Positions 7,157-39,053 of a DNA stretch of 48,490 nucleotides are shown in pieces. The translations under genes were made by a program, and so were the position numbers. Numbering within the stretch: position 1 is the first letter of the stretch; each line of letters starts with the position of its first letter. A model generated the notes under the pieces. That model saw nothing but the letters and a program-made list of their open reading frames with translations. It was not told the origin of the DNA and ran no database searches. The DNA comes from Lambdavirus PDP110P1, in the sequence record OZ035751.1; one strand, given 5' to 3'.

Positions 7157-7157
7157 C

Positions 7158-15681: not shown

Positions 15682-15684
15682 CTC

Positions 15685-16524: not shown

Positions 16525-16525
16525 C

Positions 16526-16831
16526 ATGCAGGAAATTAGCTTATCACCGTCACTATCCCAAAAGGTCTATGTCACGCTTGGCGGCCAGAACTGCGCGATC
16601 AAGTTACATCAGCGTTCAACCGGGTTTTACGCCGATCTGTATGTCGATGACAAGCCGATATTTCAGGGTGTTCTCTGCCTGAACTGCGTTTACCTGGTTC
16701 GGTATAAATATCTGGGGTTCAGTGGCGATCTGGTTTTCGTTGACTCAAAAGGTACAGCTGATCCCTATTACGACGAAATCGGCACCAGATTCAAGCTGTA
16801 TTATGCGACGAGCAGTGAGGTCGGCAGATGA
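16526..16831 (+). CDS. putative baseplate-associated protein
   Basis: 101-aa ORF in baseplate cluster. Confidence 0.35.
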   Translation: MQEISLSPSLSQKVYVTLGGQNCAIKLHQRSTGFYADLYVDDKPIFQGVLCLNCVYLVRYKYLGFSGDLVFVDSKGTADPYYDEIGTRFKLYYATSSEVGR

Positions 16832-18277: not shown

Positions 18278-18288
18278 AGGGAATAAAA

Positions 18289-18669
18289 ATGTCGCTCTTA
18301 GTCATAGCTGCTCTGCTTGGATTAATTCCTGCCTTTATCGCTCAAAGTAAGGGGAGGTCATTTGGCGCGTGGTGGTTGTATGGATTCCTTCTTTTCATCG
18401 TCGCCATTATTCATGTTCTTTTCGTTACGCCACACAATACAGCAGGCACCGTTGCCAGTGACTCAATCGGCCCCATGCGAGATTGCCCATATTGTGCAGA
18501 GCCAGTGAAGTATCAGGCCTCAAAATGCAAGCATTGTGGTAGTGAGATAGAACCTATACCGATCCCTGAGCCAAAATATAATGGAACTCAGATAGCCTGG
18601 AGCAGAATTGCAATTTTGATTGGAGGGATTGTGTTGCTGGCTATCATTTCAGGCATCATAGGCAAATAA
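18289..18669 (+). CDS. membrane protein with zinc-ribbon (moron)
   Basis: 126 aa; two N-terminal and one C-terminal hydrophobic helices flanking CPYC…CKHC; followed by a strong terminator. Confidence 0.55.
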   Translation: MSLLVIAALLGLIPAFIAQSKGRSFGAWWLYGFLLFIVAIIHVLFVTPHNTAGTVASDSIGPMRDCPYCAEPVKYQASKCKHCGSEIEPIPIPEPKYNGTQIAWSRIAILIGGIVLLAIISGIIGK

Positions 18670-18693
18670 ACCCGCTAAAAACTCAAAAATAAA

Positions 18694-18719
18694 AACCTCG
18701 CTTCGGCGGGGTTTTTTTA
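18694..18719 (+). terminator. rho-independent terminator
   Basis: CCTCGC-TTCG-GCGGGG followed by TTTTTTTAT; near-identical to the terminator at 12989-13014. Confidence 0.7.
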
Positions 18720-18731
18720 TGGGCGAAATCC

Positions 18732-19088
18732 ATGAAAACAATATCTCTCAAACTTGACCCAGATACCTGGGATCTTGTCCTTGATGAGCTGGGTAATATC
18801 GCCACGGTTGAAAACCCCTACGCCTGCGCTCAGGACGTAGCGACGGCATGCCTGGCTATACGCGGCGAGTGCATTTACGAAAAAGACACCGGCGTTAATT
18901 ACAAAGAGCTGCTTAACGTTAAGGCCAGCACTGGCGCCATGGCGGCCGCGCTTCAGGTTGAAGCGTTGCGGATGAGCTATATCGCGCGAGCTGAGCCGAC
19001 GCTGATTAACAACAGCGATACGCGCCGCACTACCGGCGTTATTGCGATCGTGGATACCAACGGCCTGGATTCCAGCGTCACCCTGTGA
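18732..19088 (+). CDS. putative baseplate protein (gp25/W-like position)
   Basis: 118-aa ORF preceding the J-like baseplate gene. Confidence 0.35.
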   Translation: MKTISLKLDPDTWDLVLDELGNIATVENPYACAQDVATACLAIRGECIYEKDTGVNYKELLNVKASTGAMAAALQVEALRMSYIARAEPTLINNSDTRRTTGVIAIVDTNGLDSSVTL

Positions 19089-19095
19089 GGAAAAA

Positions 19096-20328
19096 ATGAC
19101 GACAATCTCTACGGCGGTACCGGCCGTGACCTTTTCCACCACTGGCCTTGATGTTCCGGATGAGGGAGACATTCTTGCCGGGCGTATAGCAGATATTGGT
19201 TCTGCATTCGGGACGGCGATGAGCACGAACCTCAAGACGCCACAGGGGCAACTGGCTGTCACTGATACTGCAATCATCGCAGACAAGAACGATCAGCTTC
19301 TGGCTATCGTCAACAACATGAACCCGGACTTTTCCTCCGGAAGATTTCAGGATGGCATTGGCAGGATTTACTTCCTCGATCGTATTGCTGCTGCGGGTAC
19401 GGTTGTAACGGCCACATGCTCCGGCGTACCGGGAACGGTTATTCCGGCACAGTCCTATGCAACCGACGATAACGGTTATATGTACGTGTCCCTGGCGGCC
19501 GGAACGATTGGCGCAGACGGGACGGTAAAAATTGAGTTCCAGAACCTGACTACCGGTCCGATAGCTTGCCCCATCGGTACGCTGACAAACATCTATGTCG
19601 CGGTAAGTGGCTGGTCGAGTATCACCAACGAGACCGCGGGTGTACCGGGCTCGAATGTTGAAGGGCGATCTGCATTTGAGTATCGCCGTCGCCAGTCAGT
19701 GGCACGTAACGCCTTCAACACGGCGGCGGCTGTGCGGGCTGCTGTCCTGGAAGTCGACGGGGTGCTTGATGTTTATGTGATCGACAACAAAGAGCCGACT
19801 TCCGTCGAAAAAGGTTCCACGAATTACACACTGCTGGCCAGCTCGATTTATATCGGGGTTTATGGCGGGGCAGTAGCTGAGATTGCAGCGGCCATCAATA
19901 AAAAACTCCCCCCGGGCACCGTTATGAACGGTGACACCACCGGGACCGTGCAGGATACCGAAAATTATGACGCCCCTTATCCGGAGTACACCTACAGGTG
20001 GAAAACGCTGGACGCGGTGAGTGTTCATATCAAGGTGGAATATGAGGAAAATGATGGCCTTCCGTCAGATATCAACGCGCAGATCAGAACGGTCGTCCTG
20101 AATGCCTTTACCGGCGCAGATGGAGGTACCCGGGCGCGTGCCGGCGCGCGAATTTATGGCAGCCGCTATATCGGACCCATTCAGGCGCTCGATGCACAGA
20201 ACATGAACGTTCTTTCTGTCCAGATCTCTCTGAACGGAACCACCTGGTCTAGTGCGCTGACTATGGGGATAGATCAGGAACCGACCCTCGATGCGACAAA
20301 CATCATAACGGAGGCGGTAAGTGAATAA
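19096..20328 (+). CDS. baseplate J-like protein (putative)
   Basis: ~410 aa from ATG 19096 (RBS GAGGAA); track ORF starts earlier at 19042; position before tail fibres. Confidence 0.45.
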   Translation: MTTISTAVPAVTFSTTGLDVPDEGDILAGRIADIGSAFGTAMSTNLKTPQGQLAVTDTAIIADKNDQLLAIVNNMNPDFSSGRFQDGIGRIYFLDRIAAAGTVVTATCSGVPGTVIPAQSYATDDNGYMYVSLAAGTIGADGTVKIEFQNLTTGPIACPIGTLTNIYVAVSGWSSITNETAGVPGSNVEGRSAFEYRRRQSVARNAFNTAAAVRAAVLEVDGVLDVYVIDNKEPTSVEKGSTNYTLLASSIYIGVYGGAVAEIAAAINKKLPPGTVMNGDTTGTVQDTENYDAPYPEYTYRWKTLDAVSVHIKVEYEENDGLPSDINAQIRTVVLNAFTGADGGTRARAGARIYGSRYIGPIQALDAQNMNVLSVQISLNGTTWSSALTMGIDQEPTLDATNIITEAVSE

Positions 20329-25985: not shown

Positions 25986-27017
25986 ATGGCGCTGAAGCTA
26001 TTAGCCAATAATAACGCAAAGAGTGTTCTCGCTGCGGGTATTAGCGCGTCCGCTACCGTTATTACCGTGGGTACTGGAGCTGGGTCTTTATTCCCGTCCC
26101 CTGTATCTGGGCAGAGTTATTTCAAATTAACGATAACCGACGCGGCCACGAAAACAATTTCTGAAATTATGCACGTCACGTCTGTATCCGGTGACGTGAT
26201 GACAGTAATTCGTGGTCAGGAAGGAACTACGGCACGCGTATGGTCAACGAATGACATTGTCGCGAATTTAATGACCGCCGGATCATTGTTGTCGTTCCTG
26301 CAGATCAGCAATAACCTGTCAGAAATTAAAGATGCCGGTGAGGATGCGATAAATGAAGCCCGTTATAACCTCGGAATATCTGATTCCTCTGGTTTTGTCG
26401 GGCGTTCACTTGGCGCTCCAAAAGCTTTCTATGCAAACGGAACCTATACGCGATCTCCTCTGGCCCGTTATGCAAAAGTAACGTTGACCGGTGCCGGTGG
26501 CGGCGGTGGCGGCTGCCAGGCCTCCAACAATACAGAAACCTTCTCCGGTGCTGGCGGCGGCGCGGGCGCGACCATTATCGTATGGGTTGACCTGTCTGCT
26601 GCCAGTTCTTATGCGATTACTGTCGGCAAGGGTGGTAAGGGCGGAGTTGGCGCAGTAAGTGGTGCGGATGGTGGGGCCACCTCGTTTGCCAGCCTGTTCT
26701 CAGCTCCTGGCGGGAAAGGAGGAGTGAAGTCAGGCGTGTCCAATACCGCCGGCGGCGCCGGAGGTACGGCGGCGACCGGAGATATCAGGATCAACGGTGG
26801 TACCGGCTCAGATGGACAGACAGGCTCAAGCCTTCTGACGGGCAACGGCGGGGCGTCGTATTTTGGCGGCGGTGGCCGGGCGGGTTCTCAGGCCGGTATT
26901 GCTGGCGCAGCTCCCGGATCCGGTGGTGGTGGCGCGTATGACCTTGGGTTTACCGGTACGGCATTTACCGGTGGTGATGGTGCTACTGGCATGGCGATCG
27001 TGGAAGAATTCGCGTAA
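25986..27017 (+). CDS. tail fibre protein with glycine-rich C-terminal domain
   Basis: 343 aa; C-terminal ~170 aa paralogous to C-terminus of 20910-22205. Confidence 0.55.
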   Translation: MALKLLANNNAKSVLAAGISASATVITVGTGAGSLFPSPVSGQSYFKLTITDAATKTISEIMHVTSVSGDVMTVIRGQEGTTARVWSTNDIVANLMTAGSLLSFLQISNNLSEIKDAGEDAINEARYNLGISDSSGFVGRSLGAPKAFYANGTYTRSPLARYAKVTLTGAGGGGGGCQASNNTETFSGAGGGAGATIIVWVDLSAASSYAITVGKGGKGGVGAVSGADGGATSFASLFSAPGGKGGVKSGVSNTAGGAGGTAATGDIRINGGTGSDGQTGSSLLTGNGGASYFGGGGRAGSQAGIAGAAPGSGGGGAYDLGFTGTAFTGGDGATGMAIVEEFA

Positions 27018-27159
27018 TGGCTTACACTCCTGCACGACCATCGATGTAATCAGCCCACCACTGCATCATCTACCTGCGCTTATCGAGATACTGAGCATGG
27101 TTGTAAATTCAACTAACCCAGTGCATTGACAAAAAATTAGCGCAAGAAGACAAAAAATC

Positions 27160-27420
27160 ACCTTGCGCTAATGCTCTGTTACAGGTCACTAATACCATCT
27201 AAGTGGTTGATTCATAGTGACTGGATATGTTGTGTTTTGTAGTATTATGCAGTCTATTATTTAGACTAAATCTTTCATAACATATTGATATTTACAGTGT
27301 TTTCTGTTTATTGTTCAGCTTTTTTATACTAAGTTGGCATTATAAAAAAGCATTGCTTATCAATTTGTTGCAACGAACAGGTCACTATCAGTCAAAATAA
27401 AATCATTATTTGATTTCAAT
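27160..27420. other. attP: attP (lambda-type; core 27318-27332)
   Basis: lambda core GCTTTTTTATACTAA with flanking lambda arm sequence (…ACAGGTCACTA…), adjacent to int. Confidence 0.85.
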
Positions 27421-28476
27421 TTTGTCCCACTCCCTGCCTCTGTCATCACGATACTGTGATGCCATGGTGTCCGACTTATGCCCGAGAAGATGTTGAGCAA
27501 ATTTATCGCTTATCTGCTTCTCATAGAGTCTTGCAGACAAACTGCGCAACTCGTGAAAGGTTGGCGGATCCCCTTCGAAGGAGAGACCTGATGCTTTTCG
27601 TGCGCGCATAAAATACCTTGATACTGTGCCGGATGAAAGCGGTTCACGACGAGTAGATGCAATTATGGTTTCTCCGCCAAGAATCTTTTTGCATTTATCA
27701 AGTGTTTCCTTCATTGATATCCCGAGAGCATCAACATGCAATGTTGTTGGGATAGCAATTTTTACGCCTGTTTTGCTTTGCTCGACATAAAGATATCCAT
27801 CTACGATATCAGACCACTTCATTTCGCATAAATCACCAACTCGCTGCCCGGTAACAACAGCCAGTTCCATTGCAAGTCTAAGCCAACATGGTGATGATTC
27901 TGCTGCTTGATAAATTTTCAGGTATTCGTCAGCCGTAAGTCTTGATCTCCTTACCTCTGATTTTGCAGCGCGAGTGGCTGCGACCGGGTTTGTTGTTATA
28001 TGGCCTTCAGCTATAGCCTCTCGGAATGCATCGCTCAGTGTTGATCTGATTAACTTGGCTGATGCCGCCTTGCCCTCGTCTATGTATCCATTGAGCATTG
28101 CCGCAATTTCTTTTGTGGTGATGTCTTCAAGTGGAGCATCAGGCAGACCCCTCCTTATTGCTTTAATTTTGCTCATGTAATTTATGAGTGTCTTCTGCTT
28201 GATTCCTCTGCTGGCCAGGATTTTTTCGTAGCGATCAAGCCATGAATGTAACGTAACGGAATTATCACTGTTGATTCTCGCTGTCAGAGGCTTGTGTTTG
28301 TGTCCTGAAAATAACTCAATGTTGGCCTGTATAGCTTCAGTGATTGCGATTCGCCTGTCTCGGCCTAATCCAAACTCTTTACCCGTCCTTGGGTCCCTGT
28401 AGCAGTAATATCCATTGTTTCTTATATAAAGGTTAGGTGGTAAATCCCGGCGCTCATGACTTCGCCTTCTTCCCAT
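27406..28476 (-). CDS. int: integrase (lambda Int, tyrosine recombinase)
   Basis: 356-aa protein MGRRRSHERRDLPPNLYIRNNGYYCYRDPRTGKEF…, recognised as lambda Int. Confidence 0.95.
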   Translation of the reverse strand: MGRRRSHERRDLPPNLYIRNNGYYCYRDPRTGKEFGLGRDRRIAITEAIQANIELFSGHKHKPLTARINSDNSVTLHSWLDRYEKILASRGIKQKTLINYMSKIKAIRRGLPDAPLEDITTKEIAAMLNGYIDEGKAASAKLIRSTLSDAFREAIAEGHITTNPVAATRAAKSEVRRSRLTADEYLKIYQAAESSPCWLRLAMELAVVTGQRVGDLCEMKWSDIVDGYLYVEQSKTGVKIAIPTTLHVDALGISMKETLDKCKKILGGETIIASTRREPLSSGTVSRYFMRARKASGLSFEGDPPTFHELRSLSARLYEKQISDKFAQHLLGHKSDTMASQYRDDRGREWDKIEIK

Positions 28477-28672
28477 TTCTGATCCTCTTCAAAAGGCTAC
28501 CTGTTACTGGTCGATTTAAGTCAACCTTTACCGCTGATTCGTGGAACAGATACTCTCTTCCATCCTTAACCGGAGGAGGGAATATCCTGCACTCGCGTAC
28601 CCATCGACGAACTGTTTCAAGGCTTCTTGGGCGTCGCTGGCGAGCGTTCCACTCCTGAAGTGTCAAGTACAT
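28454..28672 (-). CDS. xis: excisionase Xis
   Basis: 72 aa MYLTLQEWNARQRRPRSLETVRRWVRECRIFPP…; overlaps int start as in lambda. Confidence 0.9.
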   Translation of the reverse strand: MYLTLQEWNARQRRPRSLETVRRWVRECRIFPPPVKDGREYLFHESAVKVDLNRPVTGSLLKRIRNGKKAKS

Positions 28673-28757
28673 CGCAAAGTCTCCGCAATTACTCGCAAGG
28701 GAACGAGTAGTGGTTGATTTTTCTCCAACAAAAAAGGAGCCGAAGCTCCTTTGATGA

Positions 28758-29381
28758 TTAAAATTCGAATTGTCTCGCCCGAAGGCTTTTCAACATTGGT
28801 CTTGCCCGTTCGAAAACGGCGCTTGTCTGGTCAAGTCGTGTCGCCTCCCTGAGCAGTACATCTCTGTTTTTCGTCACCGCATAGAAGGTTTCAAACGCAA
28901 TGTCATACAGCTTACTCGCGTATGATGAGTTAAGTTCCTTCATTATCGGGTACAGGAGTTTGCAGATGTCCTGTGCATTCTCCATCTGTACCTGCATGTA
29001 GCAGAGGAGGATGATTTCCTCGTCTGTGAATTGCTGCGCTGGTTGCATGCTGCGAAGTTTCTTTTCGCACTCGATGAAGTATCGGCGTATCTGGCGGCCT
29101 TTTTCGTTGCGCTCCACCATAGCCAGTTCTTTGGCTGTATCGAGGGTGAGGTGGTAGTCCTTGCGGTTGTGACCGCCTCTACCAGATGTTTGCTTTCCCA
29201 AATTGGAAAGCAAAATATAGTCTTGATTTTCAATGAATTTGTATTCTGAAATGCGATTTGTAATCCATGCCGCAAACACCTTTTTCACGCCTAAAAAAGC
29301 ATGCAGATCGCGGGCATTGCAGAGTAGGGCTGTTTCGTTGGCGATAGTGCCGTTGAATACGGGGATGAGTTGACTGGTCAT
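28758..29381 (-). CDS. antirepressor-like protein (AntA/ORF6N-type N-terminal domain)
   Basis: 207 aa from ATG 29381 with RBS AAAGGAGG; N-terminal domain resembles the phage antirepressor/Bro-N family. Confidence 0.5.
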   Translation of the reverse strand: MTSQLIPVFNGTIANETALLCNARDLHAFLGVKKVFAAWITNRISEYKFIENQDYILLSNLGKQTSGRGGHNRKDYHLTLDTAKELAMVERNEKGRQIRRYFIECEKKLRSMQPAQQFTDEEIILLCYMQVQMENAQDICKLLYPIMKELNSSYASKLYDIAFETFYAVTKNRDVLLREATRLDQTSAVFERARPMLKSLRARQFEF

Positions 29382-29736
29382 GATGACCTCCTTTGAAGTT
29401 TTAGTTAGCAATCACCAGTTAGTGGCTGGTGATCGGGTGTCAACTAGAGCCTTCAAAGATGCTCCGGGCATATTCCCCTTGCGGGTATTGTATTACGCCT
29501 CTCCACCCGACCTTTGTACGGATGTGACTATGCCAAATTGCAGGCATAAAAAAGCCGCAAAGCTATCGGGTGCGGATGACCGCTTTGAAGTTCTAGTGCG
29601 GTCAGTATGCGATAGCTCTGGCGGATTTGTCAAATCATGTGGTCTTTATCTTGCTGTAAGCCGCGCCATTCGGGATTTTCCCCAAATTTGGGGGAAACTA
29701 TCTGCGAAGTATTCACCTTTGACGGCAAGTTTCAGG

Positions 29737-30021
29737 TTAGCCACGACCTTCCTCCTTTGGCTTGTGAATTTGTATCGTCATGCCGCTTTGAGTGGTGACT
29801 ACAATGACAGAACCAGGCTGAAGGCTGTTAAGATTGAATGCTTCGTAAAACGAATCCAATGCCAGTGCTTTTTTATTCTTTCGGTCCCACCAACGCCATC
29901 CCTTGCTACAGGCTACACTGACAATCCACTGTCCACTCCTGTAAGCCATATAAAACCAGATGAGCAAAACCTGAAGGAAGACTATCCAGTCAATAATCGT
30001 ATATTTCGCGAAGGAGTCCAT
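29737..30021 (-). CDS. small membrane protein
   Basis: 94 aa; N-terminal hydrophobic helix; ATGA overlap with upstream gene. Confidence 0.4.
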   Translation of the reverse strand: MDSFAKYTIIDWIVFLQVLLIWFYMAYRSGQWIVSVACSKGWRWWDRKNKKALALDSFYEAFNLNSLQPGSVIVVTTQSGMTIQIHKPKEEGRG

Positions 30022-30935
30022 TACTTCATCTCCTGCGGCGGTTCCGGTAGCGGCATCCAGTGAGTTGCTTGCTCAATACCATTACCCGGCTTAATCGTTG
30101 CATCTCCGCGCCGAAAGGTGCTTCCGGTATAGCGTGCGGAGCATATTAGCGGTTCAACCAGAGAGCTATCGAAATTCACCGAAATAAGCACGTTCTGGCC
30201 ATTTTCAGGCATTCGATCACTACAGCTTATCCAACTATCCGGAGTTCCCGGAGAGTTGCCATTTACATCGAAGTTTGGCTCTGCGTCCTGAACCAGGAGG
30301 ATGTAACCATTCTTGGCTGTATCAAGTTCTAACGCCTCGGTGACGGTGCCGAAATAGCGATTACCTAAATCAGCATCACAAGTGCTTACATCAATGGAAA
30401 CTTCCATGCCTTCGATTAATTCTGGCAAGTTGTAAGTTTGGCTTACAGGTTGGCTACCCTGAAGCATGGCAGCGTGGCAGGCTTCATCAACCATAGCTTC
30501 TACGTTTTCGAGAAGTACGTAACTGTACTGCTGCCCACTAACCCATTCTTTTCTGCGAGGTAATGCGCGTGGGTCCGCTACAATGGTTCGCAAACGTTCC
30601 AGAACAGCAGGCACTACCGGCTCTACTGCCAACTGACTGGCATATTTGTTAATGGTAACGATAAGCTCTTGCTCGGCCTCATCCAGACAATCACCGATAC
30701 CTCGCCTGTCACCGTCAAAATCATCGAAATCGGCACGAATCCTGGCAACCTCCCGGATTGCGGACAACACTTCACCAGGAATAAGCGGAGAGTTGCCCGA
30801 TAGTGCATTCTGCTCCAGTGATGCCAGTGCAATCCGTGCCAGCTCACGAATCTCACCGCCGTCTATATCGTCAATGTCATCACGGCCAGAAATGTTAGCC
30901 AGCCATTGCAGTCGCTCTTTGGTAATAGTGGTCAT
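30021..30935 (-). CDS. DUF551-domain protein
   Basis: 304 aa; RBS AAGGAG; C-terminal motif …ATHWMPLPEPP resembling DUF551. Confidence 0.5.
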   Translation of the reverse strand: MTTITKERLQWLANISGRDDIDDIDGGEIRELARIALASLEQNALSGNSPLIPGEVLSAIREVARIRADFDDFDGDRRGIGDCLDEAEQELIVTINKYASQLAVEPVVPAVLERLRTIVADPRALPRRKEWVSGQQYSYVLLENVEAMVDEACHAAMLQGSQPVSQTYNLPELIEGMEVSIDVSTCDADLGNRYFGTVTEALELDTAKNGYILLVQDAEPNFDVNGNSPGTPDSWISCSDRMPENGQNVLISVNFDSSLVEPLICSARYTGSTFRRGDATIKPGNGIEQATHWMPLPEPPQEMK

Positions 30936-30945
30936 GTGTTACTCC

Positions 30946-31209
30946 TTAACCAGCTGTGCTTTCAACTGACGAGGGGAACAAAATCTTTTCTTCAAATCCG
31001 GCATTCATATCATGGACAGCAACACACCAATCCATTGACGAACGATTATCAAGAGCCTCCATGATTTCATCCATGCGGCGTAGGTCATACAGGTAAATGT
31101 TTTTATCACCAATGGTGTAAAAACCAATTTTTTTCGGTGACGGGCAGCGATCAATAACGTTCTGTAATTCGCTCAACCATGCCTGTTCCTTTTTTGTCAA
31201 AGTTGCCAT
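30946..31209 (-). CDS. hypothetical protein
   Basis: 87-aa ORF in early-left operon. Confidence 0.45.
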   Translation of the reverse strand: MATLTKKEQAWLSELQNVIDRCPSPKKIGFYTIGDKNIYLYDLRRMDEIMEALDNRSSMDWCVAVHDMNAGFEEKILFPSSVESTAG

Positions 31210-31210
31210 A

Positions 31211-31618
31211 TCACTCTCCTTTGATGCGAATGCCTGCGGCGCGGATTGCAGCGATGACTTCAGAAACTTTGTATGCCATTACCGTTTGGTAATCATCGTG
31301 AAAATCTGTTCGATGAAGCATGCTGCTACGTTCCGGGAGCAGTATTTCCCGCGCTTCCAGTTCTGCAATGCGCTTTTTTGCTGCTTCCAGTTCATCCAGT
31401 AATTCCAGCACGGTAGCCGGATTAGCCTTGGCAACAAAATCCCGGACTGGCTTACAATCAATCTCCGCAATTGGTTGATACAATGTGTAGCCATGCTGTC
31501 TTGTATAACTACCGTGACGAATAACGAAAAAATCACCATTTATTTTTTTAGCCTGCCACTTATCTTCACCGGCTTTCTCTGCCGCTTCACGCAGTGCCTG
31601 ATAGTCAATCTTGCTCAC
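31211..31618 (-). CDS. hypothetical protein
   Basis: 135 aa; GTG start in context AGGAGGCAACCAGTGAG. Confidence 0.45.
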   Translation of the reverse strand: MSKIDYQALREAAEKAGEDKWQAKKINGDFFVIRHGSYTRQHGYTLYQPIAEIDCKPVRDFVAKANPATVLELLDELEAAKKRIAELEAREILLPERSSMLHRTDFHDDYQTVMAYKVSEVIAAIRAAGIRIKGE

Positions 31619-31859
31619 TGGTTGCCTCCTGCTTCTCTGCCTTCAACACCATGCGAGAACCATCATCAAGTTCCCACGCGATCTCACCACCTTCAGCCAT
31701 GACCAGTCGCCACACCAATTGAGCAGCCTCATTGGTAACATCACGACCTGGATCATTGCCAACGCGCATACGTCCACCTTCAACATCGCGCATTTTTGCC
31801 AGCATGATAGTTTTTGATAGCGGTGAAAAACCAAGCTGTAGTCGTGCTGAATTACTCAC
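31605..31859 (-). CDS. hypothetical protein
   Basis: 84 aa from GTG 31859 with the same AGGAGGCAACCAGTGAG start context; track ORF extends further 5'. Confidence 0.4.
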   Translation of the reverse strand: MSNSARLQLGFSPLSKTIMLAKMRDVEGGRMRVGNDPGRDVTNEAAQLVWRLVMAEGGEIAWELDDGSRMVLKAEKQEATSEQD

Positions 31860-32089
31860 TGGTTGCCTCCTTTGCGTAACTGGGCGGCGCTTCTGATCTT
31901 TCCACTCTTGACCCCAGCGAAAGCCTTTAGCCAAAGCTTACGGTTGAGTGGATCATCTGTTGAATACGGATTGTCAGTTACCTCGAGGCCTATTACGGCG
32001 GCGTAGATTCCCTCCTCGTAAGCGTTGTCGACGTCTCTGGCATTACCATCTGCATCAATTCTTCTGGCAGGCTTAATCTGATTGCTCAT
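31856..32089 (-). CDS. hypothetical protein
   Basis: 77-aa ORF, coupled to neighbours. Confidence 0.4.
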   Translation of the reverse strand: MSNQIKPARRIDADGNARDVDNAYEEGIYAAVIGLEVTDNPYSTDDPLNRKLWLKAFAGVKSGKIRSAAQLRKGGNQ

Positions 32090-32526
32090 GCTGCACCTCC
32101 TTCGCGAAGCTGAGTGGCGAATTCATTAAGCTCAGCTAACAATTCATCAGCCCACTGAGCCGCTCTGCTTGCGTAGAGCATCTCCACACCCTGCGCCCGG
32201 ACTTCAGCCAGGAAAGCATCTGTGGCTGGGGTGTCTGATTGCAGAGACTTTGCGCGATAGTCATTCCACCCTCTTGCATACATGGGATTAACTTGCACTC
32301 CATCTTTTACGCAATATGCCTGACCTCCACGGTTGATAACCTTGATTTCGTCCATAGCGCCAGACTTCAGCCCCGCATTCTCCGCCGCCAGCGCCGCGCA
32401 CTTGGCCTCCGCTTCAGCAAATTTACGCACCAGATATTCAGCGTTTGTTTCGTTAACCTTTAAATCACTTGGAATGCATTTACCTTTCAGAAATCCATCC
32501 ATCTCAATTAGTGACATTTGTTTCAT
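32086..32526 (-). CDS. hypothetical protein
   Basis: ~146 aa from ATG 32526 (track ORF from 32544). Confidence 0.4.
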
Positions 32527-32687
32527 TTTTTCCCACTCCGCCACATCGCATTCAGATATTTGTTTTGATTTACTGACGGAAAAGAATTTCTCTTAAGTAA
32601 TTCCTCTCTCGATGGCATTGGCTTTACGCGTTGGCGAATAATCATTTCTGCCGGAAGAATGCCGGGATTGTATGCAAGTCCTCTCAT
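32523..32687 (-). CDS. small hypothetical protein
   Basis: 54-aa ORF with RBS AAGAGGAA; stop overlaps next start; below the track size cutoff. Confidence 0.3.
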
Positions 32688-32703
32688 GGTAAATTCCTCT
32701 TTG

Positions 32704-33018
32704 TTAATTTATTCGTATGCCTGCTCTTTCTTCATCGAGTTTTTTTAGCTTGTATCGCATAGCTCTTACTGAATAAATTGAGCGGCAGGTTGCAATTGCT
32801 ATTTCTTCTGCGGAGAACTTACCGAAAAGTGATACTTCGGCTCTTGTCCAGCGTCTTCCACGAAGTCGGCTAACAATGTCAGCGCCAATCCTTGTTGCTT
32901 TCGCCATAACTGCTTTTTCAGTCCTTTCCAGTTTTTCAGCAATAACTTCAACTGGCATTGTCGCCGATACTTCGCGCAAGAAATCGACTTCCCATTTCTC
33001 CCATGGAGCCTTTTTCAT
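32704..33018 (-). CDS. hypothetical protein
   Basis: 104-aa ORF. Confidence 0.45.
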
Positions 33019-33029
33019 AGGCGATACCG

Positions 33030-33518
33030 TTATTTGATAAGAAGTGAAGGTTTACCAACCTTGAGTTGAGCACCGGGAATATTTATTCCTGCTTTTAGTT
33101 GGTGCTTGATTGCCAACTTGTCGGCTTTAATTGTCGTTTCAAACTCAACGTAATCAGGAGGAAGGGCGCTTGAGTCGATGATTTCTACAGTTTCTGACGG
33201 TTTGCGGATTGTTACCTGGTGAATACCTGCTCTAATCTTTTTCTTGCCAACCATTTCAAGCGATGAGGCTATATATGACATAATGCTATCAATCTTATTT
33301 TGAATTACTGCGGCTCGTTCATTTAGTGACTTTGCCTCTTCCTTGAGGCGTTCAGCATAACCAGATTCATTTTTAATAATGGCAAGAAGTTGCTCTATTT
33401 TATCGGTAAATTCTCCTTCCATGCCTTCTATTGTGTCAGCAATCATCTCTGGCTCTAAATCTGAATCCATCAATTTTGCGTATTCATTGGCAATTTCATA
33501 TAGTTTGCTCACTGGCAA
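33030..33518 (-). CDS. Gp157-like protein (RecT-associated)
   Basis: 162 aa immediately upstream of RecT-like gene, the usual pairing. Confidence 0.45.
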   Translation of the reverse strand: MPVSKLYEIANEYAKLMDSDLEPEMIADTIEGMEGEFTDKIEQLLAIIKNESGYAERLKEEAKSLNERAAVIQNKIDSIMSYIASSLEMVGKKKIRAGIHQVTIRKPSETVEIIDSSALPPDYVEFETTIKADKLAIKHQLKAGINIPGAQLKVGKPSLLIK

Positions 33519-34407
33519 CCTCCAGTTTTGCTTTGCATTCTGCGTAAATGGCTTGTACGTTCTGCTGCAATTTCATTCCAGATGTCAGGCGATATGCTTC
33601 TGCAAAATATCGCTTCAAATCATCCATGTTTTCTGCCTGAGCCATTTCATCACAAAGAAGTTGAGCTTTTTCCATAATTTCCTGCTGGCGTTTCCGTTCA
33701 TCTTCGCGGATATCTTCCTCTGATTTGTGCGGCATAACTGGTTCAGTCCATACACCTTCTTCTTCGTTTAGTACGTGAATAGCACTATCAAGACGTGATG
33801 CCTTAGGCCAATACTTGCTTGCACGCTTTACGACCGTCTTTCGCGCCATCTCATTCCAGTGATTTACCCATGGTCCTTTATCGCTGAATGCCGCCTTGCT
33901 TGTTTTCCTTACAGCCTCAATTTCAGCCAGACTCATCTCTTCCGTTAGATAATCACCTGCTGGCGTCTTAACTGTGCAGTAAACGCCAACGATATCACCA
34001 CGATCACCGAAGGCGTTGTATTTATGGGTTGGTGCTTTATCAAGCCCGTTTGACTCATAGGTATCGTTAGCATGAACAAGTTTTGCCTGACCCCATGAGA
34101 TAACACCAGACTCCATTGCAATATGGAGCAATCCCATATAACTGATATCAAGGCACACCATGCCGTCGCGCGGAACCAGATAAGCCAGTTTGCTAGCCGG
34201 GTTTAAGGTGATGCCGATCGCCGCAACATTGATGATGGCGTTCTGTGCGCTGGTTGGATTTGCCAGTGCTGTTTTAGCCAGGTAATCATTTTTCTGGAAA
34301 TACTGAATTGCAAACTGGCTTTCCTTAGCCCATGTCACCGTCTGTTCAGTCAATGCTCCGCAGAATAACTGCTCTTGCTGTTTAACGAATTCAACGATAT
34401 TGCTCAT
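33496..34407 (-). CDS. recT: RecT-family single-strand annealing recombinase
   Basis: 303 aa; segment GPWVNHWNEMARKTVVKRASKYWP matches the conserved RecT region. Confidence 0.8.
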   Translation of the reverse strand: MSNIVEFVKQQEQLFCGALTEQTVTWAKESQFAIQYFQKNDYLAKTALANPTSAQNAIINVAAIGITLNPASKLAYLVPRDGMVCLDISYMGLLHIAMESGVISWGQAKLVHANDTYESNGLDKAPTHKYNAFGDRGDIVGVYCTVKTPAGDYLTEEMSLAEIEAVRKTSKAAFSDKGPWVNHWNEMARKTVVKRASKYWPKASRLDSAIHVLNEEEGVWTEPVMPHKSEEDIREDERKRQQEIMEKAQLLCDEMAQAENMDDLKRYFAEAYRLTSGMKLQQNVQAIYAECKAKLEVASEQTI

Positions 34408-34715
34408 GCTGCTTCTCCAAAAATGTGTCTGCGTTTGAATATTGCGAAGGCATATTCAGCCTTAACTCTTTTGGTTATTGCATCCCAGAACCATTCAGCG
34501 GCTTTTTCCTGATAGTCACAGTCATCATCTTCCAGCCAGTCGATAGCGTCCTTAGTGTGTTCATCTGGCTTATATGAGCGAAGCATTTCGCTTATTGGGT
34601 CACAACGTTTGCAGAGGCGATCAACTTCACTGTTGATTCGTTCGTAATCTTCATCAGTAAAACTTGCGATGATTTGCGATATTTCACGCTTATCATTCAG
34701 AGTCAGAATCATCAT
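34404..34715 (-). CDS. hypothetical protein (upstream of recT)
   Basis: 103-aa acidic protein, ATGA-coupled to recT. Confidence 0.45.
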   Translation of the reverse strand: MMILTLNDKREISQIIASFTDEDYERINSEVDRLCKRCDPISEMLRSYKPDEHTKDAIDWLEDDDCDYQEKAAEWFWDAITKRVKAEYAFAIFKRRHIFGEAA

Positions 34716-34800
34716 CTTTCTCCTGTTCTTTGTGCTGATTGAGCATTTTGTTCATCTGACGAATGAATTCTTCGTCTGACCAGTTATCTGTAAAACTCAT
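34693..34800 (-). CDS. small hypothetical protein
   Basis: 35-aa ORF, start overlaps upstream stop (CCATGA). Confidence 0.3.
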   Translation of the reverse strand: MSFTDNWSDEEFIRQMNKMLNQHKEQEKDDDSDSE

Positions 34801-34967
34801 GGACGGCCTTGTTGTTTCAAAATATCCCAAAGCTTTTCGAGCAAACTTTTCATTCTTGGTTGTTTAAAGTCTGCTCCGGTTAAAATATTTTTTCGTGAAT
34901 GCTGCACCGATAAAATCGGGTTGAAAGGGCGAACCGATGCCGCCCCTGCAATAGCGAACTGTTGCAT
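34797..34967 (-). CDS. cIII-like small protein (putative)
   Basis: 56 aa; RBS GAAGGAG; N-terminus MQQFAIAG and C-terminal LWDILKQQG resemble lambda CIII. Confidence 0.35.
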   Translation of the reverse strand: MQQFAIAGAASVRPFNPILSVQHSRKNILTGADFKQPRMKSLLEKLWDILKQQGRP

Positions 34968-35030
34968 AGGATGCTCCTTCTGTTTGATTGCATAACGAAA
35001 ACGCCTCGAGTGAAGCGTTATTGGTATGCA

Positions 35031-35057
35031 TATAAAAAAGCCCTCACATTAGAGGGC
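35031..35057 (-). terminator. rho-independent terminator
   Basis: on - strand: GCCCTC-TAATGT-GAGGGC followed by TTTTTTAT. Confidence 0.6.
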
Positions 35058-35193
35058 AAAGAAGATTTCCAATAATCAGAACAAGTCGGCTCCTGTTTAG
35101 TTACGAGCGACATTGCTCCGTGTATTCACTCGTTGGAATGAATACACAGTGCAGTGTTTATTCTGTTGTTTATGCCAAAGATAAAGGCTACCA

Positions 35194-35394
35194 TCAGGCA
35201 GCCTTGTTATTCTGTTTACCAATTTCTCTGGCAATCATTGCCGTCGTTCGTATTGCCCATTTATCGACATATTTCCCATCTTCCATTACAGGAAACATTT
35301 CTTCAGGCTTAACCATGCATTCCGATTGCAGCTTGCATCCATTGCATCGCTTGAATTGTCCACACCATTGATTCTTATCAATAGTCGTAGTCAT
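35194..35394 (-). CDS. ral: Ral-like restriction-alleviation protein (putative)
   Basis: 66 aa, four-Cys motif CGQFKRCNGCK…C; same size and position relative to N as lambda ral. Confidence 0.5.
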   Translation of the reverse strand: MTTTIDKNQWCGQFKRCNGCKLQSECMVKPEEMFPVMEDGKYVDKWAIRTTAMIAREIGKQNNKAA

Positions 35395-35464
35395 ACGGAT
35401 AGTCCTGGTATTGTTCCATCACATCCTGAGGATGCTCTTCGAACTCTTCAAATTCTTCTTCCAT
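35378..35464 (-). CDS. small acidic peptide (putative)
   Basis: 28-aa ORF MEEEFEEFEEHPQDV…, RBS GAGGTG, overlaps the ral-like start. Confidence 0.3.
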   Translation of the reverse strand: MEEEFEEFEEHPQDVMEQYQDYPYDYDY

Positions 35465-35572
35465 ATCTCACCTCAAATAAGTGGTTTGCTGCCTAATTTC
35501 ATTTTCTGGCGACCAACACAAGTCACACCCATTTCACTGCGTGGCTTGCGGTAGTAAATTAGGTTTTTTCAG

Positions 35573-35600
35573 ACAATAAAAAACCCACCGAAGTGGGCTA
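35573..35600 (-). terminator. rho-independent terminator (tL1-like)
   Basis: on - strand: CCCAC-TTCG-GTGGG followed by TTTTTTATT, just after the 114-aa gene stop. Confidence 0.65.
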
Positions 35601-35942
35601 TGACCATTTTTTATTTGGATTTCGTTGGTGAGCGTGATTAACAACTCTGTGCATTACATCCTCATATTTTTCATCTTCAATTTTTTCGACATCGCGAGGA
35701 AATGGTGTTGCTAATGCTTTGTCAACTTTATCCATTGGGTCTTCATTAATCTTATATTCAGGACCGTCATCTATAGCATTAAATCCAGGTGTTACACCGT
35801 TTTTTAATGCATATGCTATCCTCTTTTCCCATCTCGCTATTCTCCTCCTGTCTCGAGATGTAAGACCTCTATCAGATACTTTTCTGTTTTGTCCGCGGTC
35901 AGGATTAACATAAATAGTCTTTTTCACCATAAGCATACTCAA
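35598..35942 (-). CDS. hypothetical protein (first gene after N)
   Basis: 114-aa hydrophilic ORF, ATGA overlap with N. Confidence 0.45.
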   Translation of the reverse strand: MSMLMVKKTIYVNPDRGQNRKVSDRGLTSRDRRRIARWEKRIAYALKNGVTPGFNAIDDGPEYKINEDPMDKVDKALATPFPRDVEKIEDEKYEDVMHRVVNHAHQRNPNKKWS

Positions 35943-36274
35943 TAAGCACCGTACGGTAGTTTACTGTACAATTTTATTTTTTGGACTGCATGTATTTTGT
36001 TTCCTAATGGGTTTGAATCTTTGTAATAAATACTTCTATTTTTTCGAACGACTTCTTCTTTCTTCTTGCAGCAAAGGATTCCTAGTGATGCTGCTTTGTC
36101 TGCTTTGACGCAACCAGAGAGCTTTAGCGCAATTTTTCGCGCCAGTGCTTCATTACTGCGTCGCTCGGCAATAAGTTCTGCTCTGCGAGCTTTGTAGCGG
36201 CTTTTTGCCGTACCTTTGGATTCTTTCCAGACAATGGTTACCATGATGGTCTCCTTTAAGTGGCTTTGGCGCAT
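35939..36274 (-). CDS. N: antitermination protein N
   Basis: 111 aa; N-terminal arginine-rich motif GTAKSRYKARRAELIAERR; first gene of the leftward operon, downstream of a nut-like site. Confidence 0.75.
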   Translation of the reverse strand: MRQSHLKETIMVTIVWKESKGTAKSRYKARRAELIAERRSNEALARKIALKLSGCVKADKAASLGILCCKKKEEVVRKNRSIYYKDSNPLGNKIHAVQKIKLYSKLPYGAY

Positions 36275-36349
36275 GACGCGTCGAGGTGCTTATCTTCTCG
36301 ATCGCTGTCTTGCAGCTGCAATTCGCGCCATCCCCAAAACCACTCAAGT

Positions 36350-36396
36350 TCTGGTCTCAACGGTTAGGTTGAGAGTCCGTCGATGTTAAAGAGCCT
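36350..36396 (-). promoter_or_regulatory. nutL (boxA and boxB)
   Basis: on - strand boxA GGCTCTTTAA, then 11 nt later hairpin TCTCAAC-CTAACC-GTTGAGA. Confidence 0.6.
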
Positions 36397-36435
36397 GCCA
36401 ATCTGTTCCGTTTGGCTTCCAGCGTCCTGCTGATG

Positions 36436-36530
36436 GAAATGATAGTCACATATTGTGATTTAATGGTCAATCACAAAATGTGTAAAATAAAGGTGTGACA
36501 CGTTATGTGTATGATTTTTTTGTGTAAATA
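36436..36530 (-). promoter_or_regulatory. OL/pL region
   Basis: repeated TCACA…TGTGA operator-like inverted repeats and a leftward -35 TTGACC / -10 GACTAT candidate. Confidence 0.5.
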
Positions 36531-36720
36531 GTTTTACCCGCGATGGTTTTGCTTACTTAAGTCGGTGGCAACAGCAGGATGGGTGCTGAAAAGTTCGAAA
36601 AACGAGCGAAGGTGGTGGTGGCGAGATGGCGGGATATGGGAGTTGTATTAAGAATTATAGTAATTTAATCAATAGTTTGGACCGGCGGGCAGGTGCTGTC
36701 CTGATAGTGATCGGCGGACA

Positions 36721-36751
36721 ATAAAAAACCCGGCTCGGTGGCCGGGTTTAT
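36721..36751 (-). terminator. rho-independent terminator ending the cI operon
   Basis: CCCGGC-TCGGTG-GCCGGG hairpin flanked by A-run and T-run, immediately after the 216-aa gene stop. Confidence 0.75.
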
Positions 36752-37402
36752 TTATTGCTTAGGAGCTTGTTGTGATGACGATTGGTTAGTTGGAGCGCTC
36801 GTTAATGGTTGCTGTGTCGGTACCTGTATTATAATTGGAGCCGGGCTGGTTACTGATGGTGACTTGTCATTGCCGGAGATAATCCAACTTGAGGCTAACA
36901 TCACGCCAGACAGAATCACAGTAACTAAAGTCAAGCCAACGGCCATCGCCCACTGAGTCGTTGTAAGTCCCGTTTTCAAACCGCCGATTTCACCTTTAAT
37001 TTCAGCAATACCTCTCTCAATAGAAGAAAATTGCTGAGTATAATAGGTTTTAAAGTCAGCTGATTCGCGACGCATTTCCGCAGCAATAGACTCTACCTCT
37101 GATTTGTTTTGTGAAAGCTTTGCGTCAAGTTCTTCTCTGGACATTCCGCTCACGCTTACCTCCAGGGTATCACTCTTCATCGCTACATCTTCCTTACTTG
37201 GGCGCAAACCCGTTTCGTCCATGGCGTATGAAACTCTATTTGATACCTTAGCATCAATACCAATACTTTGGTACTGAGATGGATCCCCATAAGGAGAAAC
37301 GGTTGTCGCTGCTAGGGTTGCACTAACTATAATACTTGGAAGAACTGATGATGTTGTTCCTGAGGTAGGTTGAACTGAAGAAACTGGCTTCAGTCTTTCC
37401 AT
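36752..37402 (-). CDS. coiled-coil, single-pass membrane protein (third gene of cI-distal cassette)
   Basis: 216 aa; Ser/Thr-rich N-terminus, central charged helical region, hydrophobic helix WAMAVGLTLVTVILSGVMLASSWII, Pro/Gln-rich C-terminal tail; start overlaps upstream stop. Confidence 0.5.
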   Translation of the reverse strand: MERLKPVSSVQPTSGTTSSVLPSIIVSATLAATTVSPYGDPSQYQSIGIDAKVSNRVSYAMDETGLRPSKEDVAMKSDTLEVSVSGMSREELDAKLSQNKSEVESIAAEMRRESADFKTYYTQQFSSIERGIAEIKGEIGGLKTGLTTTQWAMAVGLTLVTVILSGVMLASSWIISGNDKSPSVTSPAPIIIQVPTQQPLTSAPTNQSSSQQAPKQ

Positions 37403-37656
37403 AGCCCATTATCCCTGAGAGCTACCTGTAATGATTTTACTAATGCAACAGCTTGATCCGGGCTCATTGAGACTGACATGTTAGGGGTCAACTCAACTTT
37501 TACTTGGAAGCTATTATTTCCTTGCTCATCAGACTGCATGTGATGCTCAAATTCATGGCGGTAAAAAGTAATGATTGTTTCAGCACGATCAGGCGTAATA
37601 AGAACTGATGTGGCGGTCATGTGCTGAGGTATGATTTTAATAGTGTTATCTGACAT
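37390..37656 (-). CDS. small soluble protein (second gene of cI-distal cassette)
   Basis: 88 aa from ATG 37656 with RBS AAGGAAAC; track ORF extends to 37797 without an RBS. Confidence 0.45.
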   Translation of the reverse strand: MSDNTIKIIPQHMTATSVLITPDRAETIITFYRHEFEHHMQSDEQGNNSFQVKVELTPNMSVSMSPDQAVALVKSLQVALRDNGLWKD

Positions 37657-37848
37657 AAGTATCCTTTTTGTTTCCTTAGTATTTTTTTGCATTGACATCA
37701 GAAATAGCGAATCCACAAGAGTATGAGTAAAGCTAATCAGTTTAGTGATACGGTGACTATTAAAGTGGTAAACCACATCAAAGCTCGCAGAGTGCATACC
37801 AGGCTGTCACACATGACAAAGTAACGAGGATGCCTGATCTCATAGCGC

Positions 37849-38004
37849 TCAAAGAGACATGCCGATAATGGCATTAACCACGCATGACGCCATAAACACG
37901 CCGCCAACGATGAAGCTGGCTTGGTTCTTCCTGGTAGCGCCAAGAGTCAACAGAACCACTGAAAGGGCAAAAAAAGGTATCGCGATTATGCTGAACGTGT
38001 TCAT
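37849..38004 (-). CDS. small two-helix membrane peptide (first gene after cI; putative)
   Basis: 51-aa ORF MNTFSIIAIPFFALSVVLLTLGATRKNQASFIVGGVFMASCVVNAIIGMSL with RBS GAGGT 5 nt upstream; below the track size cutoff. Confidence 0.35.
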   Translation of the reverse strand: MNTFSIIAIPFFALSVVLLTLGATRKNQASFIVGGVFMASCVVNAIIGMSL

Positions 38005-38081
38005 GTTGACCTCAACTTATTTCGATTCTCCATCACCCTTAATCCGCCGCCCCATGTGTTTGTTGTGATTCGTTGCTGGCC

Positions 38082-38726
38082 TTAACCAAACGTCTCTTCA
38101 GGCCACTGGCTGGCGATAACTTTCCCCACAACGGAACAACTCTCATTGCATGGGATCATTGGGTACTGTGGGTTTAGTGGTTGTAAAAACACCTGACCGC
38201 TATCCCTGATCAGTTTCTTGAAGGTAAACTCATCACCCCCAAGTCTGGCTATGCAGAAATCACCTGGCTCAACAGCCTGCTCAGGGTCAACCAGAATTAA
38301 CATCCCGTCAGGAAAACTAGGTTTGGATCCTGTTGGCGCGGTCATGGAATTACCTTCAACCTCAAGCCAGAAAGCTTTTTCGCTGGCTTTTGTGGTCGTT
38401 GGGACCCATGCCTTTGCATCGCTGGCTGTGTAGCTTCCCACCTCCGAAAATGGCCCGGCCTGCACTGAAGAAAATAACGGGTATTCATATTGGCGAAATA
38501 CGGCGTCTGAATCCTCGCCAAACATTATTTTTGCCGGAGATACGCCGAGTGCCGCCCCAAGAACCAGCGCGTCATCCGCGCTAACCTTTCTTGTTCCTAA
38601 CTCGTAGTTCCCCAGGCGTGAAGGCGCAGCCCAGCCGCAAAGCTTGGCCAATTGAGCCTGGCTAAGTCCTTTAGCTTCTCTAAGGGACTTGATCCTTTCC
38701 CCGATAATTTCATGCATCGTTTTCAT
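38082..38726 (-). CDS. cI: CI-type repressor (HTH plus LexA-like S24 peptidase domain)
   Basis: 214 aa; N-terminal HTH (…[24 protein letters not shown]…), C-terminal autocleavage domain; divergent from cro across operators. Confidence 0.85.
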
Positions 38727-38834
38727 CCCTTAAATGTAACACGCAACGTGATTGAACTCTGTACACGAATTGAGGTTGACTGTTAATCACAAATTGTGTG
38801 TAATGGGTGTGTGATTAATGCTAGGGAGACCGCA
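38727..38834. promoter_or_regulatory. OR operators with divergent pR/pRM
   Basis: pR candidate TTGACT-N17-TGTAAT (38776-38804); operator-like repeats AATCACAAATTGTGTGTAAT and GTGTGATTAAT. Confidence 0.6.
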
Positions 38835-39053
38835 ATGAACAAAATTGCCCAGCAGCGAAAAAAAATCGGAGTTTCGCAAGCTGTACTAGCTTCAGCAATT
38901 GGTTGGGGGCAATCCCGCATCGCCAACTATGAGCTGAATATCCGTACTCCTGGCCTTAACGATTGCCGAATGATCGTAGAAGGCCTCAGGAAGTTAGGGT
39001 GCCAATGTTCTTTGGATGATGTTTTCCCTCCATCCAGTAACAAAGCCGCCTAA
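38835..39053 (+). CDS. cro: Cro-like repressor
   Basis: 72 aa from ATG 38835 (RBS GGGAGA); HTH …IGVSQAVLASAIGWGQSRIANYEL…. Confidence 0.7.
   Translation: MNKIAQQRKKIGVSQAVLASAIGWGQSRIANYELNIRTPGLNDCRMIVEGLRKLGCQCSLDDVFPPSSNKAA

Follow-up and report, generated by a model that had tools for sequence, protein, structure and literature searches.

Seven small genes, designated here gA to gG, occupy positions 30946-33018 (2,073 bp) of the Lambdavirus PDP110P1 sequence record OZ035751.1, the whole of which (48,490 nucleotides, nt) is referred to as the window. This run of genes is most probably the accessory segment of the lambdoid PL operon, which is known as the "ea" region in P22 and as the exo-xis region in lambda, and it would consist of shuffled single-gene modules rather than of one system. 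Two layers can be distinguished within it: gA and gB are the tail of the adjoining recombination module, and gC to gG are independent cargo. Regions of this kind are known, and the run is a new mosaic combination of such genes; all seven proteins are already present in public databases as hypothetical proteins or as domains of unknown function (DUF). An earlier reading made without database searches (the sequence-only reading) had regarded each gene as a candidate inhibitor of a host system, and did not recognise the region as the ea or exo-xis segment that had already been described.

The mosaic character of the run was evident from its distribution. Of 5,426 complete E. coli genomes, 2,683 had parts of it, as did 325 phage records, and no E. 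coli genome or phage record among those searched carried at least 80% of the run in one place. The neighbourhoods were then compared in 160 IMG/VR loci, 80 of them with the same gA and 80 with the same gB allele. Among the 80 loci with the same gA, Gp157 was present in all 80, and RecT and gB were each present in 79, while the cargo genes varied: a gF-like gene was found in 44 loci, a gC-like gene in 41 and gE in 13, and neither gD nor gG was found. Across all 160 loci, gD was found in three. Around identical gA or gB alleles, the recombination-module side was constant and the integrase side was variable. The genes gC to gG are thus variable cargo that is shuffled independently.

Individual prophages illustrate the same pattern. 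The prophage next to ybhC in E. coli MS 85-1 carries a close gB-to-gF arrangement that stands behind an Erf/Abc2 module and not behind RecT/Gp157. In the Eco_70239 prophage (NZ_CM160040.1, positions 2583-2902 of the extracted locus, which correspond to approximately 31706-32311 of the window), a clean deletion extends from the C-terminus of gC to the N-terminus of gE, with 100% identity on both sides. The deletion removes gD and joins the first 72 codons of gC to the final 34 codons of gE, and both remnants are marked as pseudogenes by the Prokaryotic Genome Annotation Pipeline (PGAP). Because this natural deletion occurs in a prophage that is otherwise 100% identical, the cargo is dispensable for prophage carriage, and the same deletion is indirect evidence that the segment may be dispensable for phage growth. 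The slot of gC to gE can also hold another gene. In E. coli AJ5 (NZ_OZ547122.1), which shares the RecT-Gp157-gA-DUF2737 block and has the same gene of the Ead/Ea22-like kind, it is occupied by a gene of the Lar restriction-alleviation family (3111-3353 of the locus). Further towards the integrase gene, the AJ5 locus also has a pseudogene that resembles DNA polymerase III theta. A scan of species-representative genomes for DUF2737, the family of gB, returned just eight loci.

In terms of their linkage, gA and gB behave as the constant tail of recombination modules and not as free takeover genes. The gA gene always comes straight after the last gene of the recombination module: it directly follows Gp157, a protein of the Mu-Gam type, in all 80 IMG/VR loci with the same gA, and gB lies within 3 kb in 79 of these 80. 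The same gB allele directly follows Abc2 in 80 of the 80 loci that carry it. In phages with RecT/Gp157, gB is located just downstream of gA, at times with a DUF5405 gene between the two. Because the same allele follows either Abc2 or gA, recombination modules of different types have gB at their left border. Relatives of gA with 57-59% identity follow the YqaJ exonuclease in two other module types, and the diverged neighbourhoods have the orders RecT-YqaJ-gA'-DUF2737 and Gam-?-YqaJ-gA''-Dam, where gA' and gA'' are the gA relatives. A survey of 325 lambdoid phages described recombination modules as contiguous clusters of single-stranded DNA-binding protein (SSB), nuclease, annealing and anti-RecBCD genes, and classed proteins of the Mu-Gam type as anti-RecBCD (PMC12315714). 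Given this classification of Gp157, the seven genes start directly after an anti-RecBCD gene. Both gA and gB may be unrecognised members of the recombination module.

The profile searches connected gA to Abc1 of P22, the "anti-RecBCD protein 1". The gA protein matched phrog_11492 (E=1e-22) and phrog_323 (E=3e-19), and P22 Abc1 matched phrog_323 as well (E=1e-23), so that the two proteins fall in the same PHROG. The two proteins are also alike in their size, in their basic character, in having two helix-turn-helix repeats with a W-x3-E ... RS-x3-V-[RK] signature, and in their place beside an anti-RecBCD gene. A relative of gA with three repeats (P0250) matched the same region of the phrog_323 profile as Abc1 did, and a 98% identical gene of phage Gally is annotated as "similar to P22 Abc1". 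When the gA family was aligned to Abc1 with hhalign, both repeats were in register with a weak score (E=0.0019, probability 14.5%). The pairwise similarity of gA and Abc1, in contrast, was not significant by BLAST or HMMER: tblastn gave no match, and the plain HMMER profile gave Abc1 only 7.3 bits. The partners of the two proteins also differ, being a Mu-Gam-like protein for gA and Abc2 for Abc1. Relatives of gA of approximately 150 amino acids (aa) have a third repeat added and have a sub-threshold precomputed match to Sigma70_r4_2. P22 Abc1 itself is poorly characterised and has a helix-turn-helix domain; in the screen of Silas et al., it sensitised several wild (ECOR) hosts to phage and triggered P4-dependent cell death (bioRxiv 10.1101/2023.04.06.535777).

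A relative of the gA helix-turn-helix unit with only one repeat was observed in the nin region of an Atlantibacter hermannii prophage, where a 75-aa gene between ninF and ninG (approximately 7598-7825 of the locus) scored 30 bits with the gA-family profile. From the position of this gene, the gA-type repeat also circulates as a stand-alone unit in the early-right operon.

The gB protein scored 107.7 bits with Pfam PF10930 (cutoff 25) over residues 1-52 of 53, and it is 75% identical to orf56 of P22.

Comparison with the known systems placed the run closest to the ea region of P22 (orf56, eaE, eaF, eaD, eaI, eaA, eaG and eaC, between abc2 and xis), which has the same early-left position and strand. 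In addition to the likeness of gB to orf56, gC is approximately 35% identical to EaE, gF has the Ead/Ea22 N-terminal domain, the flanking DUF551 gene resembles EaA, and an Abc1-type helix-turn-helix gene is found at the border of the recombination module. The differences from P22 are that the recombination module consists here of RecT and a Mu-Gam-like protein instead of Erf/Abc1/Abc2, that the order and content of the cargo genes are not the same, and that tblastn found no counterpart in P22 for gD, gE or gG. The exo-xis region of lambda and Stx phages (orf60a, orf63, orf61, orf73, ea22 and ea8.5) is likewise an early block driven from PL between the recombination genes and xis, and it likewise includes a protein of the Ea22 family. 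The published roles of that region are the modulation of the lysis-lysogeny decision and of host physiology; it is dispensable, is transcribed early from PL, and affects host replication as well as the lysis-lysogeny decision (PMC10834534). As judged from these sequence comparisons, the region studied here is of the P22 type and not of the lambda type.

The location of the run within the phage agrees with this comparison. The window is that of a lambdoid temperate phage, and its minus strand carries, in order, a cI-type repressor gene, two genes without an assigned role, an N-like and a Nun-like gene, ral, cIII, orf103, RecT, Gp157 and the seven genes, which are followed by the DUF551 gene, a DUF4752 gene, an AntA-type (Ant-like) gene, xis and a lambda-type integrase gene of 356 aa. 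The run thus belongs to the PL operon, with the recombination module on one side of it, xis/int on the other, and all of these on the same strand. The sequence-only reading had assigned it to the early-left operon, and this placement was confirmed, as cI, N, ral, cIII and the RecT/Mu-Gam-like genes lie upstream of the run and xis and int downstream. The coordinates of the genes and of the main flanking features are listed in Table 1.

Table 1. Genes of the run, in the order of transcription, and flanking features of the early-left operon.
Feature	Coordinates	Strand	Product	Assignment and remarks	Junction with the next gene
cI-type repressor	38726-38082	(-)
RecT	33496-34407	(-)		PF03837; part of recombination module 33030-34407
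Gp157 / Mu-Gam-like end-protection gene	33030-33512	(-)		PF05565; phrog_253 "Mu Gam-like end protection"
gA	32704..33018	(-)	104 aa, isoelectric point (pI) 10.0	two tandem helix-turn-helix repeats; Abc1-like, phrog_323 / phrog_11492	gap 16 nt
gB	32523..32687	(-)	54 aa, pI 11.0	DUF2737; P22 orf56 homologue	ATGA overlap
gC	32086..32526	(-)	146 aa	EaE / Ea22-like; ATG start inside ATGA overlap	ATGA overlap
gD	31856..32089	(-)	77 aa	rare; core motif YEeGiYaavIG..dNPY..lNrkLWlKgF	GTGA overlap
gE	31605..31859	(-)	84 aa, acidic, pI 4.9	DUF7446; GTG start inside GTGA overlap	overlap 14 nt
gF	31211..31618	(-)	135 aa	Ead/Ea22-like N-terminal region	gap 1 nt
gG	30946..31209	(-)	87 aa, acidic, pI 4.8	phrog_1714; conserved CPSPxKxG, YDxR, C-terminal FPSxVESTAG	gap 10 nt
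DUF551 gene	30021-30935	(-)	304 aa	P22 EaA-like; PF04448; tblastn match to P22 eaA

The seven genes are real. According to the listing of open reading frames (ORFs), the run is tiled exactly by seven minus-strand ORFs between the Sipho_Gp157 gene on one side and the DUF551 gene on the other. The sequence-only reading had described seven short coupled ORFs between the DUF551 and Gp157-like genes, and its coordinates and the coupling of the genes were reproduced. The size range that it gave, 54-152 aa, stood at the lower end (gB) and had to be changed at the upper end, as the longest-ORF reading of gC (152 aa) was replaced by the start at ATG 32526. The start of gE was likewise corrected from the longest-ORF reading (109 aa) to GTG 31859. 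Both corrected starts are those used by PGAP in E. coli MS 85-1, where the same 255-nt gE gene is called, and the exact proteins are present in the public collection. When the reverse-complement sequence was read, a ribosome-binding site was found to precede six of the seven genes, the site of gA (33018) being weak. Curated or strong family models (Ead_Ea22, DUF7446, DUF2737, phrog_1714 and phrog_614) were matched by five of the seven genes, the gD and gG families keep their length down to approximately 50-60% identity, and the allele differences in gA, gB and gE pile up at third codon positions (72/54/298 over the three positions for gB).

The possibility that the ORFs are spurious was dropped because of this family conservation and this third-position bias, and the long plus-strand ORFs over the run (e.g., 30646-30969 and 32333-32596) were set aside as antisense shadows of the conserved minus-strand genes.

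A consensus scan of the minus strand found no terminator-like or promoter-like sites inside 30946-33018, and two weak promoter-like matches (9 of 12) just outside the run. At the gD/gE boundary, the 16-mer GGAGGCAACCAGTGAG at 31855-31870 (minus strand) holds the ribosome-binding site, the GTG start and the overlapping stop. The identical 16-mer occurs again at the gE/gF junction (31614-31629, minus strand), and a variant with three mismatches is found at the start of the Gp157 gene (33508-33523, minus strand). In total, five matches with three or fewer mismatches were seen, compared to 0.5 expected. It is plausible that these shared junctions are crossover points for the swapping of modules.

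Most of the genes could be assigned to families, so that the statement of the sequence-only reading that they have no assignable function does not apply to the families themselves; it does apply to what the families do, as none of them has a known biochemical function. Functional work on DUF2737, DUF7446 or the phage Rmf/CrpP proteins was not found in the literature. None of the proteins matched a well-characterised housekeeping function of phages. Sequence and profile searches against solved structures returned nothing significant for gA, gC, gD, gE, gF or gG.

Two of the cargo proteins, gC and gF, are of the Ea22 type. The gC protein matched phrog_614 (E=2e-51) and phrog_368 (E=4e-16, over residues 41-150 of the 152-aa ORF), and it is 44% identical to a protein annotated by PGAP as "ead/Ea22-like family protein" in another locus (L002). 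The gF protein matched PF13935 at 67.8 bits against a gathering cutoff of 27 (residues 2-108) and phrog_1667 at E=1e-57, and had a weak match to the N-terminus of lambda Ea22 (32% identity, E=0.001). Lambda Ea22 is a pro-lysogenic tetramer of three parts, namely an N-terminal region, a coiled coil and a variable C-terminal domain, of which the last differs among phages; the tetrameric coiled coil and the pro-lysogenic activity have been described for Ea22 of lambda and of Stx phages (PMC10834534). Complementary halves of phrog_368 were matched by gC and gF, and this fits the modular design of lambda Ea22.

The remaining cargo proteins are gD, which is considered further below, and the small acidic proteins gE and gG. 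The gE protein matched PF24233 at 66.1 bits (cutoff 24.1) and phrog_1578 at E=2e-33. The gG protein matched phrog_1714 at E=4e-50 and belongs to a family with approximately 140 clusters across the Enterobacterales, with relatives directly after the replication gene A in P2-like prophages and also within an early-left region from Edwardsiella. The AlphaFold2 model of gG was confident, with a predicted local distance difference test (pLDDT) score of 85.8 and a predicted template modelling (pTM) score of 0.68, and has a predicted alpha/beta fold, for which no significant structural neighbours were obtained in the structure or profile searches.

If the run is the accessory segment of the PL operon, then its genes would be transcribed from PL under N antitermination within minutes of infection or induction and would be silent in the lysogen. 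Each product would act alone, as a dispensable modulator that binds a target of the host or of a rival element. The gA protein is predicted to bind DNA and, by analogy with P22 Abc1, may support an anti-RecBCD or recombination function and may perturb resident elements. The gC and gF proteins are probably coiled-coil oligomers that show their variable C-terminal domains to some host partner, and on the model of lambda Ea22 they would bias the lysis-lysogeny decision. The gD, gE and gG proteins are putative small soluble binders, and at least one of them may be an anti-defence protein.

Several points weigh against this interpretation of the run as an ea/exo-xis segment of shuffled modules. The expression timing is drawn from gene position and consensus scans only, and the 160 IMG/VR loci are close relatives and not independent observations. 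When the seven proteins were compared by tblastn with positions 27500-33500 of lambda, the cassette orf60a/orf63/orf61/orf73 was found to be absent and the sole match was the weak one of gF to Ea22, so that the phenotypes described for lambda may not apply here. In sequence searches of solved structures, the C-terminal parts of gC and gF had no detectable similarity to the solved C-terminal domain of lambda Ea22. The link between gA and Abc1 consists of the shared PHROG and the weak hhalign alignment noted above, with HMMER at approximately 7 bits. Finally, gA and gB might be linked to recombination modules because they serve as recombination anchors, and not because of a shared function.

The alternative that survives best is that the run is an anti-defence island, in which the seven proteins, or at least most of them, would be dedicated early inhibitors of host immune systems. 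The surroundings of the genes lend some weight to this, as ral is located upstream in the same operon, the Mu-Gam-like anti-RecBCD gene is adjacent, and a Lar restriction-alleviation gene occupies the gC-gE slot in AJ5. Moreover, P22 Abc1, with which gA has phrog_323 in common, produced counter-defence phenotypes in several ECOR hosts; the gC, gE and gG proteins resemble many protein inhibitors in being small and acidic (pI 4.8-5.0); and the gene content turns over rapidly. Other observations speak against an island. Searches with the general libraries Pfam, NCBIfam and PHROGs gave no match of the seven genes to families of the Ocr, Ard, Ral, Lar, Gam or Abc2 type, PADLOC gave no match for any of the seven, and a search of the Silas et al. 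screen supplements for six short peptide motifs, one each of gA, gB, gD, gE, gF and gG, gave no match. Ea22, which is the sole characterised relative of the cargo, acts on lysogeny and not on immunity, and gA and gB travel with the recombination module. An island of this kind is therefore considered unlikely. The statement of the sequence-only reading that each gene is a candidate inhibitor has to be judged by the same facts, being modestly favoured by the Abc1 link, the Lar gene of AJ5 and the upstream ral, and disfavoured by the lack of known anti-defence or defence matches, by the action of Ea22 and by the position of gA and gB as a module tail; it is plausible as a prior about the region and is not evidence about the genes.

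A second alternative concerns gD only, and proposes that this protein is a phage mimic of the ribosome modulation factor (RMF), which would act early in infection by binding the 30S subunit and by dampening or redirecting the translation of the host. The gD family is rare, with 13 clusters at 90% identity and nine representatives among 1.84 billion proteins, and gD was not found in phage records by tblastn. Its relatives are located either in the nin region, as in an Atlantibacter prophage, or among other small early genes elsewhere. The scores of gD itself were below the curated cutoffs (22.5 against 28 bits for NF041886, and 18.7 against 27.9 bits for PF04957), and the sub-threshold signal was consistent across the family, with the NCBIfam model Rmf_CrpP_fam matched below threshold by 14 of 14 members and the Pfam RMF model by 11 of 15. 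When a broadened gD profile was searched against solved structures, the top match was again RMF (2jrm), at a non-significant E=1.1, and hhalign placed the common motif G..A...G....PY....W..G in register. The gD family thus shares the core motif with the RMF/CrpP families (PF04957, NF041886) and probably their helix-loop-helix layout, as helices are predicted to flank the NPY loop in the AlphaFold2 model.

That model was, however, poor (pLDDT 52), and a Foldseek search with it returned only noise. Besides remaining under all of the family cutoffs, gD differs from the RMF/CrpP families in having an extra N-terminal segment of approximately 20 residues and in being carried by phages in early accessory regions. 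The gD family is also not conserved as basic, its pI ranging from 4.5 to 9.3 compared to 10.9 for E. coli RMF. The related CrpP and phage Rmf-like families are not known to have a ribosome role. The assignment of gD as a true member of the RMF family was dropped, with its scores below cutoff and its family not basic, and the proposal that it is an RMF mimic is regarded as improbable. The exhaustive search for gD relatives also returned a protein of 1317 aa (P0280) that has five dispersed copies of the gD-type Rmf/CrpP-like motif (e.g., AYKEGKEAYYNGLNISDNPY...WLDGYQDA).

A third alternative is that the genes are morons, that is, defence or superinfection-exclusion genes that are expressed from the prophage and protect the lysogen. 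Genes of this sort are common in prophages, and the early-left regions of lambdoid phages have sieB and Rex-type genes in them or nearby. This is nevertheless very improbable for the run and was dropped, given its position deep in the repressor-controlled PL operon and the lack of any promoter-like site on the coding strand inside it; in addition, none of the seven had a PADLOC match, none of the products exceeds 146 aa, and none has an enzymatic Pfam domain above threshold. The remaining alternative, in which the seven coupled genes would each supply a subunit or a step of one machine or pathway, as their tight translational coupling and single transcription unit might suggest, is hardly credible and was dropped in view of their independent assortment: the same gB allele is found behind Abc2 or behind gA, gD is present in three of 160 related loci and in a nin region elsewhere, gG occurs in P2-like phages, and the natural deletion takes gD and parts of gC and gE and leaves the neighbours intact.

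A number of further observations were made in the surroundings of the run. The N-like antiterminator gene (35939-36274, minus strand) is followed with a 4-nt overlap by the gene for a Nun-like termination factor (35598-35942; phrog_5632, E=5e-71), and the presence of both together is unusual. At 36752-37797 (minus strand), two genes that encode proteins of 135 aa and 216 aa (phrog_26809 and phrog_5820) are located between the cI-type repressor gene and N, which is the position of rexAB in lambda. This pair had no Pfam match, and its sole PADLOC match was a marginal one to PDC-S52 (E=0.0095); PADLOC gave nothing for the neighbours of the seven genes. The pair is a candidate for an exclusion function that is expressed from the prophage. 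Just downstream of the run in the direction of transcription, a match to the Rfam family sRNA-Xcc1 (RF02221) is located at 29423-29512 (minus strand), between the DUF4752 gene and the gene for the AntA-type antirepressor, with 65.4 bits against a gathering score of 53. The phage as a whole is chimeric. Its structural half (1-20000 of the window) has a GC content of 0.48-0.58 and is 92-96% identical to prophages of Klebsiella pneumoniae, such as ST15-VIM1phi2.1, whereas the early region (27000-39000) has a GC content of 0.40-0.50, is 96-100% identical to lambdoid prophages of E. coli, and has an integrase of the lambda type.

With the run taken as an accessory segment of single-gene modules, the best leads are gD, because of its rarity and its Rmf/CrpP-like motif, and gG, because of its conserved orphan fold, followed by gA together with gB. 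On the basis of its rare family and its Rmf/CrpP-like core, gD could be a phage-encoded modulator of the ribosome or of translation. The gG protein combines a confident predicted fold that has no structural relative with strictly conserved motifs, and it is found in the early operons of both lambdoid and P2-like phages. It might thus be a novel inhibitor directed at a conserved target, either of the host or of a defence system. There is a slim chance that at least one cargo gene, gD or gG, could define a new class of early phage effectors.

For the biology of the lambdoid phages, gA and gB are candidates to be set alongside the anti-RecBCD functions, gC and gF are modular proteins of the Ea22 type that bear on the control of prophage induction, and gD and gG are compact and well-defined candidates for expression screens. 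If any of the seven is indeed an anti-defence or translation-modulating factor, the finding would be relevant to a large share of the prophages of E. coli and Salmonella, including the Stx phages.

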